Made by a program: the position numbers and the translations under genes. This document shows positions 1-7,284 of a DNA stretch of 7,284 nt, one piece after another. The stretch's first letter is position 1; the number at the start of each line of letters is the position of its first letter. Below the pieces are notes generated by a model, which was not told the DNA's origin, ran no database searches, and worked only from the letters and a program-made list of their open reading frames with translations. This DNA comes from a virus (taxonomy: Duplodnaviria > Heunggongvirae > Uroviricota > Caudoviricetes). Location: the IMG/VR virus record IMGVR_UViG_3300029745_000310, positions 1-7,284 of that record; one strand, given 5' to 3'.

Positions 1-1164
1 TTATGCTTTCTTTGCATCCTCAAAAACCTCAGGGTGGGACAAATTTGGGACATCGTCACCCAATATGTCGTCAATTTTCCTCGCGTGCTCTGTCAAATGA
101 TTAGGTGCAAGGTGTGCGTACCTACGCACCATTTCGATAGACTCCCAGCCGCCCATTTCCTGAAGTACTGACAGTGGTACACCTGACTGAATTAACCAAC
201 TGGCCCAGGTATGGCGGAGGTCATGAAAACGGAAATTTTCAATTCCTGCCCGACGACATGCTGTTAACCACGATGTGTTATAGTCCAGGCGCATCTTTCT
301 GATGCTTGGTGTCATTGTCCCGTCAGGCCTTCTGGCAGCAGTGGTATAAACAAACACCCAGCGGTGATGTTTGCCTATTTGATCACGCAACACCTTGCAG
401 GCAGTGTCATTCAGTGCGACCCCAATAGCGCGGTTTGACTTACTGTCTTCAGGGTTTACCCAGGCAACACGTCGCTGCATATCGATTTGTTGCCACTCCA
501 GATTAATAATGTTTGATCTCCTCAGGCCAGTTGCCAGTGCAAATTTAACTACAGATTTCAGGGGATCAGAACATGCATCAATGAGTCTCCTGGCTTCTTC
601 TTTTTCCAGCCATCTCACGCGTTTGTTTTTTACGGCAGGTATTTTGATTACAGGTGCTTTTTCAAGCCATTTCCAGTCTCGCTCTGCGGCGCGCAGAATA
701 GCCTTGATCATTGCCAGGTGTGTTGCTTTTGTTTGCGTGCTCACCGATTTAGGTATATAGGCTGGTGGTTCTTTCCCTTTTCTTAATGCAGCCTCCACCT
801 GCAACTTCCATCTCTCCTTTGTTTTTCGGTTATACGCTTTGCTGATAACTGAGTAGATCATTGCCTCCGATATATCCTTAATCCTTATTCCCTCGAAATG
901 CTCAATCCAGAATGCGATTCTGGATTTATCGGAATCGATGGATTTCTTGTCGGCTTTTTCCTCAAGCCATCTCAGGCAGGCTTCTTCGAAAGTGACATCT
1001 GGCATATCCCCCAGTCTGTCTACTCGCCAGAGTTCTGCTTTTCGCTTGTCGTGCAACTCCTGAGCTTGCCGCTTGTCCTTTGTGCCAAGAGACTCCTTAA
1101 TTCGCTTCCCGCCCGGGAGCGAGTACGAGGCGTACCATATTTCACCTCTGCGGAAGAGTGACAT
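1..1164 (-). CDS. intD: Phage tyrosine integrase (IntD/IntR-like, lambdoid prophage)
   Basis: 387-aa ORF with ATG at 1164..1162 preceded by SD-like AGAGGAAAG. N-terminus [12 protein letters not shown] and C-terminal catalytic region [11 protein letters not shown] ... [15 protein letters not shown] (Arg/His/Tyr active-site pattern of tyrosine recombinases) match my recollection of the E. coli cryptic-prophage integrases IntD/IntR. Stop codon is the first three bases of the window. Confidence 0.93.
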
Positions 1165-1391
1165 TTTCTTTCCTCTGTTATGCCATCACCCGCGCTCACC
1201 TGGACAGTATGCAGCGGTGAATGAAGTGCTGCAATGCAGGCTTGCCGGGTTGTGAGATAAGGTGATCTTTTACCGGAAGAATTTTTTCGGGTTGCCTGTA
1301 GTCGGCCCGTTCGTATCCAGTTAACAGCTGTTGGCCTTGATATCTTGAGAAACTTACAGGCCTCTTTGAGGGTGATACTGTGTGAATCCAT
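1020..1391 (-). CDS. xis: Excisionase-like HTH DNA-binding protein (Xis/AlpA-type)
   Basis: ATG at 1391..1389 opens [36 protein letters not shown], a helix-turn-helix typical of phage excisionases, sitting immediately upstream of int on the same strand. The frame stays open to 1020 and overlaps the int start by about 145 nt, so the true C-terminal extent is uncertain. No clear SD; may be translationally coupled to the upstream ORF. Confidence 0.6.
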
Positions 1392-1425
1392 ATTTTCGCC
1401 ATTAAAAACCGCCCGAAGGCGGTTG

Positions 1426-1686
1426 TCAGTTGATTGATATGCGGCGCATTTTTCGAAGGCTGGCAATATGCTTTTCCTTCTCAATTTCTGCTTTAATCAT
1501 ATGTAGTTCGTTGTGATCGATTCGCTCAAATTCTGCATTAAATGAGTTAATTGATGCGGCTCTGGTTCTCCCATCCAGCCTTCGGAAGATCACCTGTGTC
1601 AGCGTTACCTTGCAGACTTGAACCGGATAGTTGTTGGCGTCGACGAAGGACTGCCCGCGCTGGATCAGAACGAACACAGGTAGCAT
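1426..1686 (-). CDS. Hypothetical small protein (86 aa) between exo and xis
   Basis: ATG-initiated ORF on the same strand as int/xis/exo, packed tightly between the exo stop (1725) and xis start (1391), with AAGGA directly abutting the ATG. No recognisable motif. Supported only by operon context and lack of a competing gene. Confidence 0.45.
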   Translation of the reverse strand: MLPVFVLIQRGQSFVDANNYPVQVCKVTLTQVIFRRLDGRTRAASINSFNAEFERIDHNELHMIKAEIEKEKHIASLRKMRRISIN

Positions 1687-1724
1687 TCCTTAACTGTCAT
1701 ATCATTTGCACCTCGTTGCTACGG

Positions 1725-2420
1725 CTATCGCCATTGCTCCCCAAATACAAAACCAATTTCAGCCAGTGCCTCGTCCATTTTTTCGATGAACTCCGGTACC
1801 ATTTCGTCAAAAACCTCCATGTATTTTTCATCCCGTTCGACCACGACATAATGCAGGCCTTCACGCTTCATACGCGGGTCATAGTTGGCAAAGTACCAGG
1901 CATCTTTTCGCGTCACCCACATGCTGTACTGCACCTGGGCCATGTAAGCCGACTTTATGGCCTCGAAACCACCGAGCCGGAACTTCATGAAATCCCGGGA
2001 GGTAAACGGGCATTTCAGTTCAAGGCCATTGCCGTCACTGCATAAACCATCGGGAGAGCAGGCGGTGCGCATACTTTCGTCGCGATAGATGATCGGGGAT
2101 TCAATAACATTTACGCCGGAAGTGAACTCAAACAGGGTTCTGGCGTCGTTCTCGTACTGTTTTCCCCAGGCCAGTGCTTTAGCGTTAACTTCCGGAGCCA
2201 CACCGGTGCAAACCTCGGCAAGCAGGGTGTGGAAGTAGGACATTTTCATGTCAGGCCACTTCTTTCCTGAGCGGGGCTTTGCTATCACGTTGTGAACTTC
2301 TGAAGCGGTGATGACGCCGAGCCGTAATTTGTGCCACGCATCATCCCCCTGTTCGACAGCTCTCACGTCGATCCCGGTAACGATATCCGTCTGATGCGTG
2401 AACGTGATGGACGTAACCAC
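1725..2420 (-). pseudogene. exoD: Lambda Exo-family 5'-3' exonuclease (Red-alpha/YqaJ-like), N-terminus replaced, no ATG start
   Basis: Translation from about 2377 down to the stop at 1725 ([30 protein letters not shown] ... [11 protein letters not shown]) is near-identical to phage lambda Exo as I recall it. The first ~10 codons of lambda Exo (MTPDIILQRT) are replaced by unrelated sequence, and the frame has no in-frame ATG upstream of the homology; the only candidates are GTG at 2420 (no SD) and TTG at 2540. Body appears otherwise intact, so it could still be expressed from a non-canonical start. Confidence 0.75.
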
Positions 2421-2429
2421 CGCGACATG

Positions 2430-2615
2430 TGTGTACTGTTCCGCTGGGCCTGCCAGGACAACTTCTGGTCCGGTAACGTGCTGAGTCCGGCCAAACTCCG
2501 CGACAAGTGGACCCAGCTCGAAATCAACCGGAACAAGCAACAGGCTGGCGTGACAGTCGGCAAACCAAAACTCGACCTGACAAACACTGACTGGATTTAC
2601 GGGGTGGATCTATGA
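2430..2615 (+). pseudogene. Replication initiator O, C-terminal remnant only
   Basis: Plus-strand frame ends ...[38 protein letters not shown] with TGA at 2613..2615 overlapping the P start in an ATGA junction, exactly the lambda O/P arrangement. Homology is secure from about 2502; the left boundary (about 2430) is approximate. No N-terminal DNA-binding domain or ori iterons are present. Confidence 0.7.
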
Positions 2616-3313
2616 AAAACATCGCCGCACAGATGGTTAACTTTGACCGTGAGCAGATGCGTCGGATCGCCAACAACATGCCGGAACAGTACGACGAAAA
2701 GCCACAGGTACAGCAGGTAGCGCAGATCATCAACGGTGTGTTCAGCCAGTTACTGGCAACTTTCCCGGCGAGCCTGGCTAACCGTGACCAGAATGAACTG
2801 AACGAAATCCGCCGCCAGTGGGTGCTGGCTTTTCGGGAAAACGGGATCACCACAATGGAACAGGTTAACGCTGGAATGCGCGTAGCCCGTCGGCAGAATC
2901 GACCATTCCTGCCATCACCCGGGCAGTTTGTCGCCTGGTGCCGGGAAGAAGCATCCGTTACCGCCGGGCTGCCAAACGCCAGCGAGCTGGTTGATATGGT
3001 TTACGAGTATTGCCGGAAGCGCGGGCTGTATCCGGATGCAGAGTCTTATCCGTGGAAATCAAACGCGCACTACTGGCTGGTTACCAACCTGTATCAGAAC
3101 ATGCGGGCCAATGCGTTGACTGACGCGGAATTACGGCGCAAGGCTGCCGATGAACTGTCCTGTATGACCGCACGAATTAACCGTGGTGAGGCTATACCTG
3201 AACCAGTAAAACAACTTCCTGTCATGGGCGGTAGACCTCTAAATCGTGCACAGGCTCTGGCGAAGATCGCAGAAATCAAAGCTAAGTTTGGGCTGAAAGG
3301 AGCAAGGGTATGA
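2612..3313 (+). CDS. P: Lambda-type replication protein P (DnaB helicase loader)
   Basis: 233-aa ORF MKNIAAQMVNFDREQMRRIANNMPEQYDEKPQVQQVAQIINGVFSQLLATFPASLANRDQNE ... AKIAEIKAKFGLKGARV, near-identical along its length to phage lambda P as I recall it. Start overlaps the O-remnant stop (ATGA); stop overlaps the ren start (ATGA at 3310..3313). Confidence 0.93.
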   Translation: MKNIAAQMVNFDREQMRRIANNMPEQYDEKPQVQQVAQIINGVFSQLLATFPASLANRDQNELNEIRRQWVLAFRENGITTMEQVNAGMRVARRQNRPFLPSPGQFVAWCREEASVTAGLPNASELVDMVYEYCRKRGLYPDAESYPWKSNAHYWLVTNLYQNMRANALTDAELRRKAADELSCMTARINRGEAIPEPVKQLPVMGGRPLNRAQALAKIAEIKAKFGLKGARV

Positions 3314-3612
3314 CGGGCAAAGAGTCAATTATTCATTACCTGGGGACTCATAAGAAATTCTGTGCGCAGGACGTTGCCGCGGTAACAGGCGCAACGGTAA
3401 CCAGCATAAATCAGGCTGCGGCTAAAATGGCGCGGGCAGGAATCCTAGTCGTTGATGGTAAGGTCTGGCGAACGGTGTATTATCGGTTCGCTACCAGAGA
3501 AGAATGGGAAGGAAAGGTGAGCACGAATTTGATTTTTAAGGAGTGTCGCCAGAGTGCCGCGATGAAACGGGTATTGAGGGTATATAAAAGAACATCAATG
3601 GGTACACAATGA
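3310..3612 (+). CDS. ren: Ren protein (lambda ren homolog)
   Basis: 100-aa ORF MTGKESIIHYLGTHKKFCAQDVAAVTGATVTSINQAAAKMARAGILVVDGKVWRTVYYRFATREEWEGK ... closely matches lambda Ren as I recall it. Strong SD AAGGAG at 3297..3302, and the ATG overlaps the P stop. Confidence 0.88.
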   Translation: MTGKESIIHYLGTHKKFCAQDVAAVTGATVTSINQAAAKMARAGILVVDGKVWRTVYYRFATREEWEGKVSTNLIFKECRQSAAMKRVLRVYKRTSMGTQ

Positions 3613-3629
3613 TGAAACAGGTGAGTTGA

Positions 3630-3664
3630 GTTCAAACTGTAGTACAATTCTCTCCAGTTTGAAC
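3630..3664. repeat. Perfect 10-bp inverted repeat GTTCAAACTG-N15-CAGTTTGAAC between ren and emrE
   Basis: Read directly: 3630..3639 GTTCAAACTG and 3655..3664 CAGTTTGAAC are exact reverse complements, separated by a 15-nt spacer. The right arm ends one base before the emrE SD (AGGAAA 3665..3670). No U-tract follows, so it is not a classic intrinsic terminator. Confidence 0.6.
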
Positions 3665-3679
3665 AGGAAAGAATATGCT

Positions 3680-4012
3680 ATGAATCCTTATATTTATCTT
3701 GGTGGTGCAATACTTGCAGAGGTCATTGGTACAACCTTAATGAAGTTTTCAGAAGGTTTTACACGGTTATGGCCATCTGTTGGTACAATTATTTGTTATT
3801 GTGCATCATTCTGGTTATTAGCTCAGACGCTGGCTTATATTCCTACAGGGATTGCTTATGCTATCTGGTCAGGAGTCGGTATTGTCCTGATTAGCTTACT
3901 ATCATGGGGATTTTTCGGCCAACGGTTGGACCTGCCAGCCATTATAGGCATGATGTTGATTTGTGCCGGTGTGTTGGTTATTAATTTATTGTCACGAAGC
4001 ACACCACATTAA
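3680..4012 (+). CDS. emrE: Small multidrug resistance (SMR) efflux transporter EmrE
   Basis: 110-aa product MNPYIYLGGAILAEVIGTTLMKFSEGFTRLWPSVGTIICYCASFWLLAQTLAYIPTGIAYAIWSGVGIVLISLLSWGFFGQRLDLPAIIGMMLICAGVL.INLLSRSTPH matches E. coli EmrE as I recall it, including the essential Glu14 (AILAEVIG). ATG at 3680 with SD AGGAAA 9 nt upstream. The listed ORF start at 3626 is a TTG extension. AT-rich relative to the P/ren backbone. Confidence 0.96.
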   Translation: MNPYIYLGGAILAEVIGTTLMKFSEGFTRLWPSVGTIICYCASFWLLAQTLAYIPTGIAYAIWSGVGIVLISLLSWGFFGQRLDLPAIIGMMLICAGVLVINLLSRSTPH

Positions 4013-4043
4013 AAATAATTTGTTTTTAAACGACTAAAATATG

Positions 4044-4084
4044 GAGGCTCGTATATTTATATGGGCCTCGTTTTATGCTTTTTG
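4044..4084 (+). terminator. Possible intrinsic terminator downstream of emrE
   Basis: GAGGC (4044..4048) ... GCCTC (4065..4069) short stem followed by the T-rich run GTTTTATGCTTTTTG (4070..4084). Stem is short and loop long, so this is weak. Confidence 0.35.
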
Positions 4085-4112
4085 TTAATGTCTTTAGTTT
4101 TTATTCATTCTT

Positions 4113-4267
4113 TTGTGCTTTCAAGATTATGGTGTAAGAAAATTGCAATACGATTATTGTTGTATATTCAAGATAATGTGACCTTAATTGTCTTTTTAAA
4201 TAAAAATTAAACAAAAATCATATCTCACCACTAAGGTTTATAAAAGCATACTTTAGCAGGTGTCACC
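4113..4267 (+). promoter_or_regulatory. AT-rich upstream region of the recombinase gene with a direct repeat (TTCAAGAT at 4120..4127 and 4167..4174)
   Basis: 255-bp intergenic region of very low GC. TTCAAGATtATGgTG (4120..4134) and TTCAAGATaATGTG (4167..4180) form an imperfect direct repeat 47 bp apart. A possible sigma70-like pair is GTGACC (4178..4183) and TAAAAT (4201..4206) with a 17-bp spacer. SD AGGTG at 4258..4262 precedes ATG 4268. The promoter assignment is a guess. Confidence 0.3.
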
Positions 4268-5794
4268 ATGAAAAAAGCCATAGCATATATGCGATTTTCA
4301 TCACCAAGTCAGATGTCTGGTGATTCATTAAACCGCCAGAGAAGGCTTATTACTGAATGGCTAAAGGTAAATAGTGATTATTACCTTGATACCGTAACGT
4401 ATGAAGATTTGGGGTTAAGCGCATTCAATGGAAAGCATGCACAATCAGGAGCTTTTTCGGAATTTTTAGATGCTATAGAACATGGTTATATATTGCCAGG
4501 GACTACATTGTTAGTTGAAAGTCTGGACAGACTTTCAAGAGAAAAAGTCGGTGAAGCGATTGAGCGTCTGAAATTGATTTTGAATCACGGTATTGATGTT
4601 ATAACTCTTTGCGATAATACAGTCTATAATATTGACTCATTGAATGAGCCATATTCATTAATAAAAGCCATACTTATAGCACAAAGGGCAAATGAAGAAA
4701 GCGAGATAAAGTCAAGTCGGGTTAAATTATCATGGAAGAAAAAACGGCAGGATGCACTGGAGTCAGGCACGATTATGACGGCGTCTTGTCCGAGATGGCT
4801 CTCATTGGATGACAAAAGAACGGCTTTTGTTCCAGACCCCGACAGGGTGAAAACTATTGAGCTAATTTTTAAACTCAGGATGGAAAGGCGCTCATTGAAT
4901 GCAATAGCCAAGTATTTAAATGATCATGCTGTAAAGAATTTCTCAGGAAAAGAAAGTGCATGGGGACCTTCTGTAATTGAAAAATTATTAGCGAATAAAG
5001 CTCTGATAGGTATATGCGTACCTTCATATCGTGCAAGAGGTAAAGGAATAAGTGAAATCGCTGGCTATTATCCCAGAGTCATATCAGATGATTTGTTTTA
5101 CGCTGTGCAGGAAATTCGGTTGGCACCTTTTGGTATTAGCAATAGTAGCAAAAATCCTATGTTGATAAATCTACTTCGAACAGTTATGAAGTGCGAGGCT
5201 TGTGGTAATACCATGATTGTTCATGCGGTATCTGGAAGTTTGCATGGCTATTATGTTTGTCCGATGAGAAGACTGCATCGATGTGACAGGCCATCAATAA
5301 AGAGAGATTTGGTTGATTATAATATCATTAATGAGTTGCTTTTTAATTGTAGTAAAATCCAACCAGTTGAAAACAAGAAAGATGCTAATGAAACTTTAGA
5401 GTTGAAAATTATTGAGCTCCAGATGAAAATTAATAATTTAATTGCTGCATTATCTGTTGCGCCTGAAGTTACCGCTATAGCAGAAAAAATCAGAGTATTA
5501 GATAAGGAATTACGAAGGGCTTCTGTATCATTAAAAACTTTGAAGAGTAAAGCGGTGAGTTCACTTGGTGATTTTCATGCTATTGACTTAACCAGTAAAA
5601 ATGGGCGAGAGCTATGTCGTACACTTGCCTATAAAACATTCGAAAAAATCATAATCAATACAGATAATAAAACCTGTGATATCTATTTTATGAATGGCAT
5701 TGTTTTTAAACACTATCCTTTAATGAAAACAATATCCGCCCAGCAGGCGATAAGTACTCTCAAATATATGGTTGATGGTGAGGTTTATTTTTGA
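4268..5794 (+). CDS. ybcK: Large serine recombinase family protein (YbcK-like; resolvase catalytic domain, recombinase domain, zinc ribbon, coiled coil)
   Basis: 508-aa ORF. N-terminal AIAYMRFSSPSQ fits the serine-recombinase nucleophile motif (compare YARVST.Q), and LLVESLDRLSR matches the conserved D-R-L-x-R catalytic motif. Central CPRWLS region, a Cys cluster CEACGNT ... YYVCPMRRLHRC (zinc ribbon), and a heptad-like stretch LELKIIELQMKINNLIAAL. Length and position immediately after emrE match my recollection of DLP12 ybcK (putative recombinase). Strongly AT-rich. Confidence 0.9.
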   Translation: MKKAIAYMRFSSPSQMSGDSLNRQRRLITEWLKVNSDYYLDTVTYEDLGLSAFNGKHAQSGAFSEFLDAIEHGYILPGTTLLVESLDRLSREKVGEAIERLKLILNHGIDVITLCDNTVYNIDSLNEPYSLIKAILIAQRANEESEIKSSRVKLSWKKKRQDALESGTIMTASCPRWLSLDDKRTAFVPDPDRVKTIELIFKLRMERRSLNAIAKYLNDHAVKNFSGKESAWGPSVIEKLLANKALIGICVPSYRARGKGISEIAGYYPRVISDDLFYAVQEIRLAPFGISNSSKNPMLINLLRTVMKCEACGNTMIVHAVSGSLHGYYVCPMRRLHRCDRPSIKRDLVDYNIINELLFNCSKIQPVENKKDANETLELKIIELQMKINNLIAALSVAPEVTAIAEKIRVLDKELRRASVSLKTLKSKAVSSLGDFHAIDLTSKNGRELCRTLAYKTFEKIIINTDNKTCDIYFMNGIVFKHYPLMKTISAQQAISTLKYMVDGEVYF

Positions 5795-5817
5795 GTAATA
5801 ATCACTTTTTCAACCGT

Positions 5818-5896
5818 GCTATAGTAAGAAAGTTAGGTAAGTACAATAAAATTATCTATCCTGAACGAAGCGTCCTGAGCTATGGTTTTACTATAG
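5818..5896. repeat. Inverted repeat GCTATAGTAA ... TTACTATAG (palindromic CTATAG cores) downstream of ybcK and upstream of the 99-aa ORF
   Basis: Read directly: CTATAGTAA at 5820..5828 and its exact reverse complement TTACTATAG at 5888..5896, separated by 59 bp. A related GCTATGG lies at 5878..5884. The region sits where GC content rises again, at the right edge of the AT-rich block. Confidence 0.5.
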
Positions 5897-5905
5897 GGAC
5901 TGCCA

Positions 5906-6205
5906 ATGGATGCTGGCGTTCTCGTTCTAGCAGTTCAACAATACCCAATCACAAAACAATTCACTGATAACAAACTTTGTGCACGTGCTTGGTTATGGCG
6001 AGCAGGTGATGTGATGTTAACTGCCTGCCAGAACGTTACTCCACTACTTCAGGTTGCGGAGCACCGCGAAGCCGGCCGCTTTACTTCTATCGAGCAAGAA
6101 TATCCCCAGATACTCAACAGAGCGCGAGCAATCCTCGCCAGAGAAACGGCACATGTAAAATTCCAGCCGTGGCTGGATGATAAGTGGAGTCGAGTGTTAC
6201 CATAA
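5906..6205 (+). CDS. Hypothetical protein (99 aa), unknown function
   Basis: ATG at 5906 with SD-like AGGGA 7 nt upstream; a stem-loop plus T-tract terminator follows at 6250..6288. GC content is higher than the flanking AT-rich DNA. No motif I recognise (MDAGVLVLAVQQYPITKQFTDNKLCARAWLWRAGDVMLTACQ...). Confidence 0.5.
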   Translation: MDAGVLVLAVQQYPITKQFTDNKLCARAWLWRAGDVMLTACQNVTPLLQVAEHREAGRFTSIEQEYPQILNRARAILARETAHVKFQPWLDDKWSRVLP

Positions 6206-6249
6206 TTCCGTCAGAATCTGTTCCAATAAAGTCACTAGTTAGAAATACT

Positions 6250-6288
6250 GCCAGCATTCTACGATGACGGAAGTGCTGGCATTTTTTG
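6250..6288 (+). terminator. Intrinsic terminator-like hairpin followed by T-tract
   Basis: GCCAGCA (6250..6256) pairs with TGCTGGC (6274..6280) across a 17-nt loop and is followed by ATTTTTTGG (6281..6289). It lies 45 bp downstream of the 99-aa ORF stop. Confidence 0.5.
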
Positions 6289-6405
6289 GGTAATATGCGA
6301 GTCCATTTCATAAAATACGGGTGCTGTAAACTGGACGATATAATCTAAAATATACCATTACCAGTAGCGTTCAAATCGCTATGTGCCGATACGGATAAAA
6401 TTATA

Positions 6406-6436
6406 TTGATTGTGCACATACCTTATTGGATATTAC
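6406..6436 (+). promoter_or_regulatory. Candidate sigma70 promoter for the 169-aa ORF
   Basis: TTGATT (6406..6411) as -35, about 17-19 bp spacer, then GATATT/TATTAC (6429..6436) as -10, roughly 30 bp upstream of ATG 6464. Sequence-pattern guess only. Confidence 0.3.
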
Positions 6437-6463
6437 TGAGGGGTATTTATATAAGGTGTAACG

Positions 6464-6973
6464 ATGATGTGGAACTTTGACAGTGCCGACTTAAGTGCAA
6501 TAGCAGCAGGTATTTCTGCGTTTGGCACATTAGCCGCAGCGGGGTCGGCGCTTGCAAGTTGGTACACGTCAAAAAAAGCGCTGCAGCTACAAAATAGAGT
6601 TTACCTTTATGAGTCTTTAAAGGCTTGCGCTGAGAGAGCCAATTCATCAGCTAAAGATAAGCGCGGATCTGAATGGAGCGTTAATGATGCAGCGGATATC
6701 ATCAGGTGCCTAGTACGGGCGATGGAGATCATCAAGCAGGATAGCCAGCAGAAAGAAGGTAATCAGGCATTAATGTTGAAACAGTACTTTGTTAATCTGC
6801 TAATAATGGAACTGTACGAGGAAGTTCATAACGGTGATGCGGCTGATTCTGTTTTTAAAAGTACGGAACCTACACAAGTACTTGATAACTTATGGAGCAA
6901 ATGGCAGGAGGCTATAGCTTTTTTTGATATTTGGAATTACCCAGTTGCGACTGAGGAAGACTTGGCAGACTAA
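6464..6973 (+). CDS. Hypothetical membrane-anchored protein (169 aa): N-terminal hydrophobic helix plus acidic helical soluble domain
   Basis: Tandem ATG ATG at 6464/6467 with AAGGTG 5 nt upstream. Residues about 10-33 (LSAIAAGISAFGTLAAAGSALASWY) form a single predicted transmembrane or signal-anchor segment; the remaining ~135 aa are charged and helical in composition. Preceded by an AT-rich intergenic region with its own promoter-like sequence. No homolog I recognise. Confidence 0.6.
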   Translation: MMWNFDSADLSAIAAGISAFGTLAAAGSALASWYTSKKALQLQNRVYLYESLKACAERANSSAKDKRGSEWSVNDAADIIRCLVRAMEIIKQDSQQKEGNQALMLKQYFVNLLIMELYEEVHNGDAADSVFKSTEPTQVLDNLWSKWQEAIAFFDIWNYPVATEEDLAD

Positions 6974-7053
6974 TTTTCAGCACATTTGATTTCCAATAAT
7001 CAACCAGCCATAATCATGCCATTGGGGCCTGAACAACTCCGGTGACTTCTGCG

Positions 7054-7284
7054 CTAAACGGGGACGTTTATGCGCACATACAATCCAACCTCTCTTCTCC
7101 ATTCACAGATGCAGAAATGCACCTGCGATATTTTGCATCCAGCGTTTGATCTCTGCGGAGGTGAAGCGTGAACCTCCCACAAGATGGTATCAAATTGCAT
7201 CGCGGTAACTTCACCGCTATCGGTGTCAGCGCCAGTGATATAAGACGGTAATTCACCATTTGGATTGTCCGCTCCACCCAACAT
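7054..7284 (-). CDS. Partial ORF, 3' end of a convergent gene truncated by the window edge; unknown function
   Basis: Frame is open from the window edge (7284) to TAG at 7056..7054: ...[36 protein letters not shown].... Its amino-acid composition looks more protein-like than the competing overlapping frame (7068..7277). Nothing further to support it. Confidence 0.3.

Follow-up and report, generated by a model that had tools for sequence, protein, structure and literature searches.

Among described systems, the DNA considered here is best compared with the DLP12 prophage of Escherichia coli K-12 (intD-xisD-exoD'-peaD'-renD::IS3-emrE-ybcK...), in which a truncated exo lies head-to-head with truncated replication genes and the immunity region and origin have been lost. 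In phage lambda, which supplies the reference for these genes, O, P and ren are translationally coupled. The P protein binds DnaB and cures ColE1 plasmids upon expression (PMC3640518, PMC4926192); expressed P is toxic through DnaB, and its residues 9-86 are needed for both lethality and replication (PMC3640518). In the trapped cryptic lambda prophages studied by the Hayes laboratory, ori-O-P fragments kill on induction, and the survivors carry lesions in O or P, either deletions or insertions (PMC3640518).

Here we analyse a stretch of 7,284 nucleotides (positions 1 to 7,284 of the IMG/VR virus record IMGVR_UViG_3300029745_000310, Caudoviricetes; hereafter the window), which reads as the left part of a DLP12-type lambdoid prophage and in which a 5'-truncated exo is fused head-to-head with a C-terminal remnant of O (O'). 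The joint between them is very probably the scar of a single illegitimate deletion in a DLP12-family lambdoid prophage, with the dinucleotide TA as its only microhomology; the scar was later moved into its present setting, and the whole P and ren beside it would be passengers. The window shares with K-12 DLP12 the genes int, an exo fragment, P, ren, emrE, ylcJ and ybcK, then ylcH/ybcN. The DLP12-family series exo'-(O'/P')-ren-emrE-ylcJ-ybcK followed by ylcH-ybcN is collinear with that of K-12, and window 1727-2004, 3002-5803 and 6998-7224 align to it at 91-96%; these genes are annotated in sister loci as well. The joints differ, however: in K-12, exoD' (equivalent to window 1727-2004) is joined to peaD' (equivalent to window 3002 onwards), a deletion of 2005-3001 that overlaps the joint of the window and removes it. 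K-12 also has the insertion sequence (IS) IS3 in ren, whereas P and ren are whole in the window; the IS3 that the preliminary description of this DNA mentioned for K-12 DLP12 is real, lies within renD and is absent here.

The features around the joint, in window coordinates, are:

1725-2379, minus strand: exo without its first 9 codons (lambda Exo residues 10-226 and the stop codon), from the YqaJ domain and collinearity with lambda
1840-1982, no strand: crossover interval within exo, from the mismatch map against the prophage of E. coli EC2 and the joint-bearing locus L001
2374-2382, plus strand: CCGGTAACG, created by the joint, a 9-bp direct repeat of 2470-2478 in O'
2378-2379, no strand: the joint, a TA dinucleotide present in both parents, from three-way alignments with lambda and with L120
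2378-2615, plus strand: the O remnant (O'), the last 78 codons and the stop codon, from the protein match to lambda O 222-299
2612-3313, plus strand: P, 233 amino acids, helicase loader family, intact (Pfam Phage_lambda_P, E=8e-62)
3310-3612, plus strand: ren, 100 amino acids, intact, from the full open reading frame (ORF); annotated 'phage exclusion protein Ren' in sister loci

Window 1727-2379 is collinear with lambda 31350-32002 (exo) at 96.8% nucleotide identity, and window 2378-3585 with lambda 39348-40555 (the C-terminus of O, P and ren) at 93.9% (both by the Basic Local Alignment Search Tool, BLAST). In the three-way alignment with lambda, collinearity with exo extends up to ...GTCGATCCCGGTA and collinearity with O starts from TAACGATATCC..., so that the two overlap in the TA at 2378-2379, and no inserted base or filler is found at the joint. 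The alignment to lambda that the preliminary description had proposed places the breakpoint to the base and reveals a microhomology, TA. The recombination joint that it had read from the sequence is upheld by the lambda collinearity, by the protein alignments and by the comparison with the undeleted locus L120 (below), and its end of Exo homology, at about 2377, was right to within two bases, the actual end being 2379. Its spacer of 50-120 bp between the two genes does not exist, the sequence taken for it being O, whose homology begins at 2378; the remnant, put at about 40-60 codons, has 78.

On the exo side, 211 of 217 residues are identical to lambda Exo residues 10-226 (97%) and the YqaJ nuclease domain is complete (E=6e-29), with the native ATG and 9 codons gone. 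The reading frame continues into antisense O DNA, and the sole available starts, GTG 2420 and TTG 2540, lie in this foreign DNA; in sister loci the Prokaryotic Genome Annotation Pipeline (PGAP) calls a 227-residue protein for the truncated exo. On the other side, O' matches lambda O residues 222-299 at 76 of 78 positions (97%), and its amino acids are identical to the C-terminus of L120 O. The N-terminal origin-binding domain (Pfam Phage_rep_O) is not retained, and PGAP calls O in the sister loci a pseudogene ('Replication protein O, missing N-terminus'). P is full length, with 228 of 233 residues identical to lambda P (98%). ATGA overlaps couple O' to P (2612-2615) and P to ren (3310-3313), so the early observation that the O remnant is still coupled to an intact P was accurate, as was the finding of a full-length Ren, which is an intact ORF of 100 amino acids.

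A chimeric ORF of 94 amino acids (2331-2615) begins at GTG 2331 and places 16 antisense-exo codons in frame with O', and it is translationally coupled to P; it has no Pfam match, and the annotation of L117 and L123 lists it as a gene. A similar leader (16 residues, one different) is fused in frame to the C-terminus of MT-A70 in L015. The joint also creates a 9-bp inverted repeat that spans it (CACGCATCA at 2335-2343 and TGATGCGTG at 2392-2400). The second copy of CCGGTAACG, at 2470-2478 in O', is the native site of the O'' breakpoint of strain FT130.

Undeleted DLP12-family emrE-ybcK prophages, such as L120 and L118, show what may have stood between the two sides. The closest of them, L120 (GCA_026619795.1), matches window 2378-7224 with its positions 9767-14613 at 99.5%, and its P is identical. 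Unlike the window, it keeps 6,850 bp between the TAs of the two parental sites, which are GATCCCGGTA/CGCTG in exo and GGGTGGGCTA/ACGATATCC in O (here and below, a slash marks the breakpoint; the O site ends GGGCTA). This segment holds exo codons 1-9, RecT/bet, gam, kilR, about 3 kb of other ORFs, an S24-type repressor, ydaS, ydaT and codons 1-261 of an O of 339 amino acids; the breakpoints fall 26 nucleotides inside exo and at O codon 261/262. The immunity genes of L120 thus sit between exo and O, and the lambda N/cI/cro/cII set is absent from it. In lambda itself the breakpoints are 7,346 bp apart (32002 and 39348), and the immunity region and O N-terminal domain of the true parent are not those of lambda. 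The earlier claim that the immunity region, bet and the O N-terminus with the origin are gone therefore stands, and its list of lost lambda genes (N, cI, cro and cII) does not, these being absent from L120: the genes lost from beside exo appear to belong to an L120-type lineage, with the same functional outcome. Judged by the gene order of L120, the element would be without a repressor, an origin and a Beta recombinase. By analogy with lambda, whose iterons (39034-39118) fall in the part deleted here, the origin iterons would have been within the lost part of O. Two further observations on the undeleted prophages are that L120 carries a gene for an IS200-like Y1 (HUH) transposase between Q and a lipocalin gene (16695-17153), and that L118 lies beside fimbrial/fimZ-like genes, which flank argU in K-12.

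We propose that the parent resembled L120 (int ... orf60a-exo-bet-gam-kilR-...-repressor-ydaS-ydaT-O-P-ren-emrE-ybcK) and that one deletion of 6,850 bp, running from 26 nucleotides inside exo to O codon 261/262 of 339, would have taken exo codons 1-9, bet, gam, kilR, the repressor/operator region and the N-terminal domain of O. Such deletions may have persisted by being favoured for the removal of killing functions of a trapped prophage (origin-dependent replicative killing, kil). The likeness to the trapped prophages of the Hayes laboratory lies in this selective logic: those are engineered lambda fragments under cI857, whereas the locus described here is natural and has lost the repressor and left-operon genes as well.

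The joint is found well beyond this window. An 80-nucleotide sequence across it is present in 23 of 5,426 complete E. coli genomes, identical in 22 and 97.5% identical in the 23rd, and the same joint occurs in three IMG/VR contigs and one metagenome contig. As a whole arrangement, by contrast, no complete E. coli genome covers at least 80% of the window. In L001 and its sister loci L117, L122, L123 and L125, the joint lies within a prophage at icd that has a different integrase. Window 1-2379, in turn, is 99.4% identical to the undeleted prophage of EC2, whose exo continues into bet and gam. Mismatches against EC2 number 2 in 1-1982 and 13 in 1983-2376, whereas those against L001 number 8 in 1797-1839 and a single one in 1840-7224. 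Since the pattern of mismatches switches between EC2 and L001 inside exo, the window is a recombinant, in which a homologous crossover within exo (1840-1982) combined an EC2-type left arm with a joint-bearing, L001-type right arm. The joint was thus inherited, in common with the icd prophages, and not made in this prophage, and the crossover set the scar beside a different int-DUF4222 arm, by transfer from the icd type to this arm or the reverse.

Other members of the family have lost parts of the same module in other ways. In strain L9 (99.8-99.98% identical to K-12), exo is retained to the same base as in the window and is joined to P from window 2707, with the microhomology GGTAC. The K-12 arrangement is the L9 form plus a further deletion (exoD' ...GAGGTA/CGAG... 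peaD', microhomology TA) and the IS3 in ren, which makes the L9 form its direct precursor. BLAST counts of the L9-type joint are confounded, two nearby pieces being merged in the joint-bearing loci. In XJ34, exo is joined to ybcN'; in B-JRPT-4119, DUF4222' is joined to a nearly whole but frameshifted O; and in FT130, orf60a' is joined to O'', with an IS3 in P. From these comparisons, the DLP12 family is losing its replication genes piecemeal. IS elements are also present in this module, namely IS3 in P (FT130, L025 5845-7006), IS2 in emrE (YZ22MPE54, L009 5650-6878) and an IS3-family element in exo (L086).

The exo end of the joint is a recurrent endpoint, and its exact position is probably not random. 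The sequence CCCGGTA/ is joined to five truncated genes: O' in the window, P' in L9, a short P fragment with ren' in L010, L011, L012 and L017, ybcN' in XJ34, and an MT-A70 methylase gene in L015. The last of these arose by a clean deletion of 6,029 bp from an L023-like icd prophage, with flanks 99.9% identical and sites GATCCCGGTA/CGCTG and AAAGGGTA/AGCGGG, and is therefore an event independent of the joint of the window. The O' end, /TAACGATATCC, has a second left partner in orf60a/DUF1317 (L002, L019 and L020). The site in that gene, ...GTGATCGCGCCTA/ (L001 5974; it ends GCGCCTA and lies 28 nucleotides inside the gene), has at least 12 partner sequences (L002, L019, L020 and L024-L036), including O', the shorter O'', ren', P', ybcN', a nin-region gene and a baseplate gene. 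Within this collection, a control site 28 nucleotides to the left has no non-native continuation, and an internal GGTA of exo, also used as a control, has only the K-12 joint. The queries that recovered most of these endpoint variants were anchored on the hot sites themselves; in an unanchored sample of 80 loci, truncations end at 794, at 834 and 837 (the exo site, two partners), at 963, at 1052/1053 (a bet site, also with two) and at 1759.

The endpoints also share a dinucleotide. Seven of the eight distinct left endpoints and all 13 native right sites identified end in TA, which makes up 3.6-4.3% of dinucleotides, and the natural mosaic boundary examined does not end in TA. Almost every deletion joint examined has TA in both parents, among them those of L004, L008, L020, L050, L080, L084, L109 and others; the exceptions are L112 (CATGC) and a second joint of the window at 7224 (GGT). 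One ybcN site, TTGGGTA/, serves both as the right end of the exo/ybcN' joint of XJ34 (L005 7042) and as the left end of a joint between ybcN' and a tail gene in L001 (L001 11666). In the orf60a series, most native partner sites read (C)CGGTA, a closer fit to the exo site than to the one in orf60a; this suggests that the orf60a-series joints may have arisen in two steps, via exo-series intermediates. The predicted exo/O'' intermediate was found in none of the 5,426 genomes, and none of the predicted intermediates was found in IMG/VR.

Several other accounts of the joint and of the genes beside it have to be weighed. That some intact lambdoid phage naturally has exo beside O is exceedingly improbable. 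Such an adjacency was looked for, and none of 283 matching phage records covers both sides in one place, each listed record matching the query at two separate places; moreover, Exo lacks its start and first 9 codons, O lacks 221 codons (by lambda) or 261 (by L120), and undeleted relatives hold 6.85 kb between the two sites. A deletion that arose de novo in the lineage with the EC2-type integrase arm, the identity with the icd joint then being due to convergence or to transfer in the opposite direction, would fit the 99.4% match of the left 2,379 nucleotides to an intact EC2-type prophage with exo running into bet, and the recurrence of the exo endpoint makes convergence on that side conceivable. 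We nevertheless consider it very improbable, as a single base separates the window from L001 across 1840-7224, compared with 13 differences from EC2 in 1983-2376; the exo DNA beside the joint is hence of L001 type and not EC2 type, and the 80-nucleotide joint is identical in 22 genomes and nearly so in the 23rd.

A further question is the condition of P and ren, which the preliminary description thought worth noting in the case of an intact P without O. Their retention by selection, P (with or without ren) having been domesticated for modulation of DnaB, exclusion of incoming phages or plasmid curing, would accord with the lack of any interruption of P and ren in the examined joint-bearing loci where they are complete, with the known binding of DnaB and curing of ColE1 plasmids by expressed P (PMC3640518, PMC4926192), and with the coupling of the chimeric 94-residue ORF to P. 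This intactness carries no information, however, because the joint-bearing loci are nearly identical (0-1 base differences in P, 99.5-100% identity overall; ren is 100% identical in L001, L002, L013, L016 and L019 and 99.7% in L018). The ratio of nonsynonymous to synonymous substitution rates (dN/dS) likewise says nothing about selection on these two genes: it is 0.04-0.10 for P against other alleles, and the dead fragments score alike, at 0.04-0.11 for the O remnant and 0.07 for the K-12 pseudogene peaD, so that the low values reflect history in functional phages and not selection in place. In sister DLP12 variants P is truncated, IS-interrupted or deleted. A scan with the sigma-70 consensus returned 4 sites where 3.5 were expected, none of them near the joint, and P and ren appear to be separated from their native upstream operon region with no recognisable replacement promoter. 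The identical P protein is found in 10,626 index blocks, including prophages with a whole early region, which accounts for its good condition. We thus regard maintenance by selection as very unlikely, and the hint of significance in an intact P without O is unsupported; we infer instead that P and ren are unexpressed passengers, intact as recent imports from a very common phage lineage rather than maintained by the host.

Some points weigh against our reading of a deletion scar with passenger genes. The consensus scan may miss a weak or non-sigma-70 promoter. Since the 94-residue ORF is coupled to P, any transcript reading through from the antisense strand of exo would lead to expression of P. 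The parent is inferred from a relative, and L120 differs at 25 positions of the right arm and is only 97% identical in exo. Finally, a purely random deletion leaves unaccounted for the fact that the same exo base has at least five partners elsewhere.

This last point bears on a possibility that complements the deletion reading, namely that the joint came not from random slippage but from a site-preferring process that repeatedly joins the exo site to other TA sites, mostly GGTA; the 5' end of exo might be nicked, stall replication or form a structure, or a recombinase or nuclease might act at TA. The five truncated-gene partners of CCCGGTA/, the independence of the L015 joint, the at least 12 partners of the orf60a ...GCGCCTA/ site, the behaviour of the two control sites, the TA at 7 of 8 left and 13 of 13 right sites, and the use of the ybcN GGGTA as both a right end (XJ34) and a left end (L001) all speak for such a preference. 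Against these stand the recovery of most variants with queries anchored on the same sites and the additional endpoints (794, 963, 1052/1053 and 1759) of the unbiased sample of 80 loci. No IS or other element lies at any joint, no stem-loop exceeds those of shuffled sequences, and inverted repeats of this quality abound in the region without lining up with every hot site. The two hot sites have no convincing protein-site-like motif in common, none being found beyond TA flanked by CCCGG; GGTA at the partner sites follows in part from microhomology with the exo site; and some exo-series joints (the L9, XJ34 and L010 types) could be nested derivatives of one ancestor. On balance a site-preferring origin is possible but doubtful. 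The wider proposition, that a TA-specific strand-joining process directs the deletions disabling lambdoid prophages of E. coli to a few hot sites, the window joint being one of its products, is more speculative still and we think it rather unlikely. Its hot sites may lie 26-28 nucleotides inside exo and orf60a and at certain GGTA/TA sites in bet, O, P, ren and ybcN, and the process itself may be template switching primed by a nick or stall, or the action of an unrecognised nuclease or recombinase.

Several specific mechanisms were also considered and rejected. Adjacent deletion mediated by an IS or transposon does not fit, as no element, filler or IS end follows the exo or orf60a site in any recovered locus; the IS elements seen (the IS3-family element in exo in L086, IS3 in ren or P, and IS2 in emrE) sit away from the joints. 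A hairpin or cruciform at the joint was dismissed on folding z-scores of -0.4 to +1.8, which are nothing unusual. A 15-nucleotide, 87% inverted repeat links the orf60a and exo 5' regions, but such repeats are common in the region and the bet site is not fitted by it. Restriction sites and the IS608 TTAC, IS5 YTAR, integron GTTRRRY and invertase-site motifs, compared by eye, include none that fits all joints.

The remainder of the window was mapped from ORFs, Pfam and the annotation of sister loci, and no Rfam family was matched in the window. Its other features are:

1-1164, minus strand: tyrosine integrase of the left arm, 387 amino acids (Pfam Phage_integrase, E=1.5e-45)
1426-1686, minus strand: DUF4222 gene of the left arm (Pfam DUF4222, E=1.2e-15)
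3680-4012, plus strand: emrE
4268-5794, plus strand: ybcK, a large serine recombinase
5906-6205, plus strand: P22AR-C gene
6464-6973, plus strand: ORF of 169 amino acids with no Pfam match
6998-7224, plus strand: segment matching the ylcH-ybcN region of K-12 (ylcH and the first 57 nucleotides of ybcN)

The integrase gene has 99.4% nucleotide identity to that of the EC2 prophage and about 82% to K-12 intD (BLAST). The window begins at the int stop codon and shows no attachment (att) site, and the late region falls beyond it; the EC2 prophage, with its like integrase, adjoins ynfG. The interval between int and exo (1257-1726), with a possible xis/helix-turn-helix remnant and the DUF4222 gene, has no counterpart in K-12 DLP12 and matches EC2-type prophages beside ynfG. 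The gene for a P22AR C-terminal domain and the 169-residue ORF (5906-6973) occupy the place held in K-12 by ybcL-ybcM, and the pair is also found in L001 and L120. At 7224/7225 lies the second joint of the window, where ybcN ends after 57 nucleotides (...GCTATCGGT/GTCAGC...). Past it comes the 5' end of a minus-strand ORF that runs off the window; K-12, L001 and L007 keep ybcN there.

Taken alone, the joint is a case of routine prophage decay, and it refines the history of the DLP12 family by supplying a member less decayed than that of K-12, with a whole P and ren and a dated scar. The crossover within exo shows, in addition, that homologous recombination can carry a deletion scar from one prophage to another with a different integrase. 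Should the recurrent endpoints and the TA rule be borne out, they would indicate a particular, hitherto undescribed way in which prophages of E. coli become disabled.

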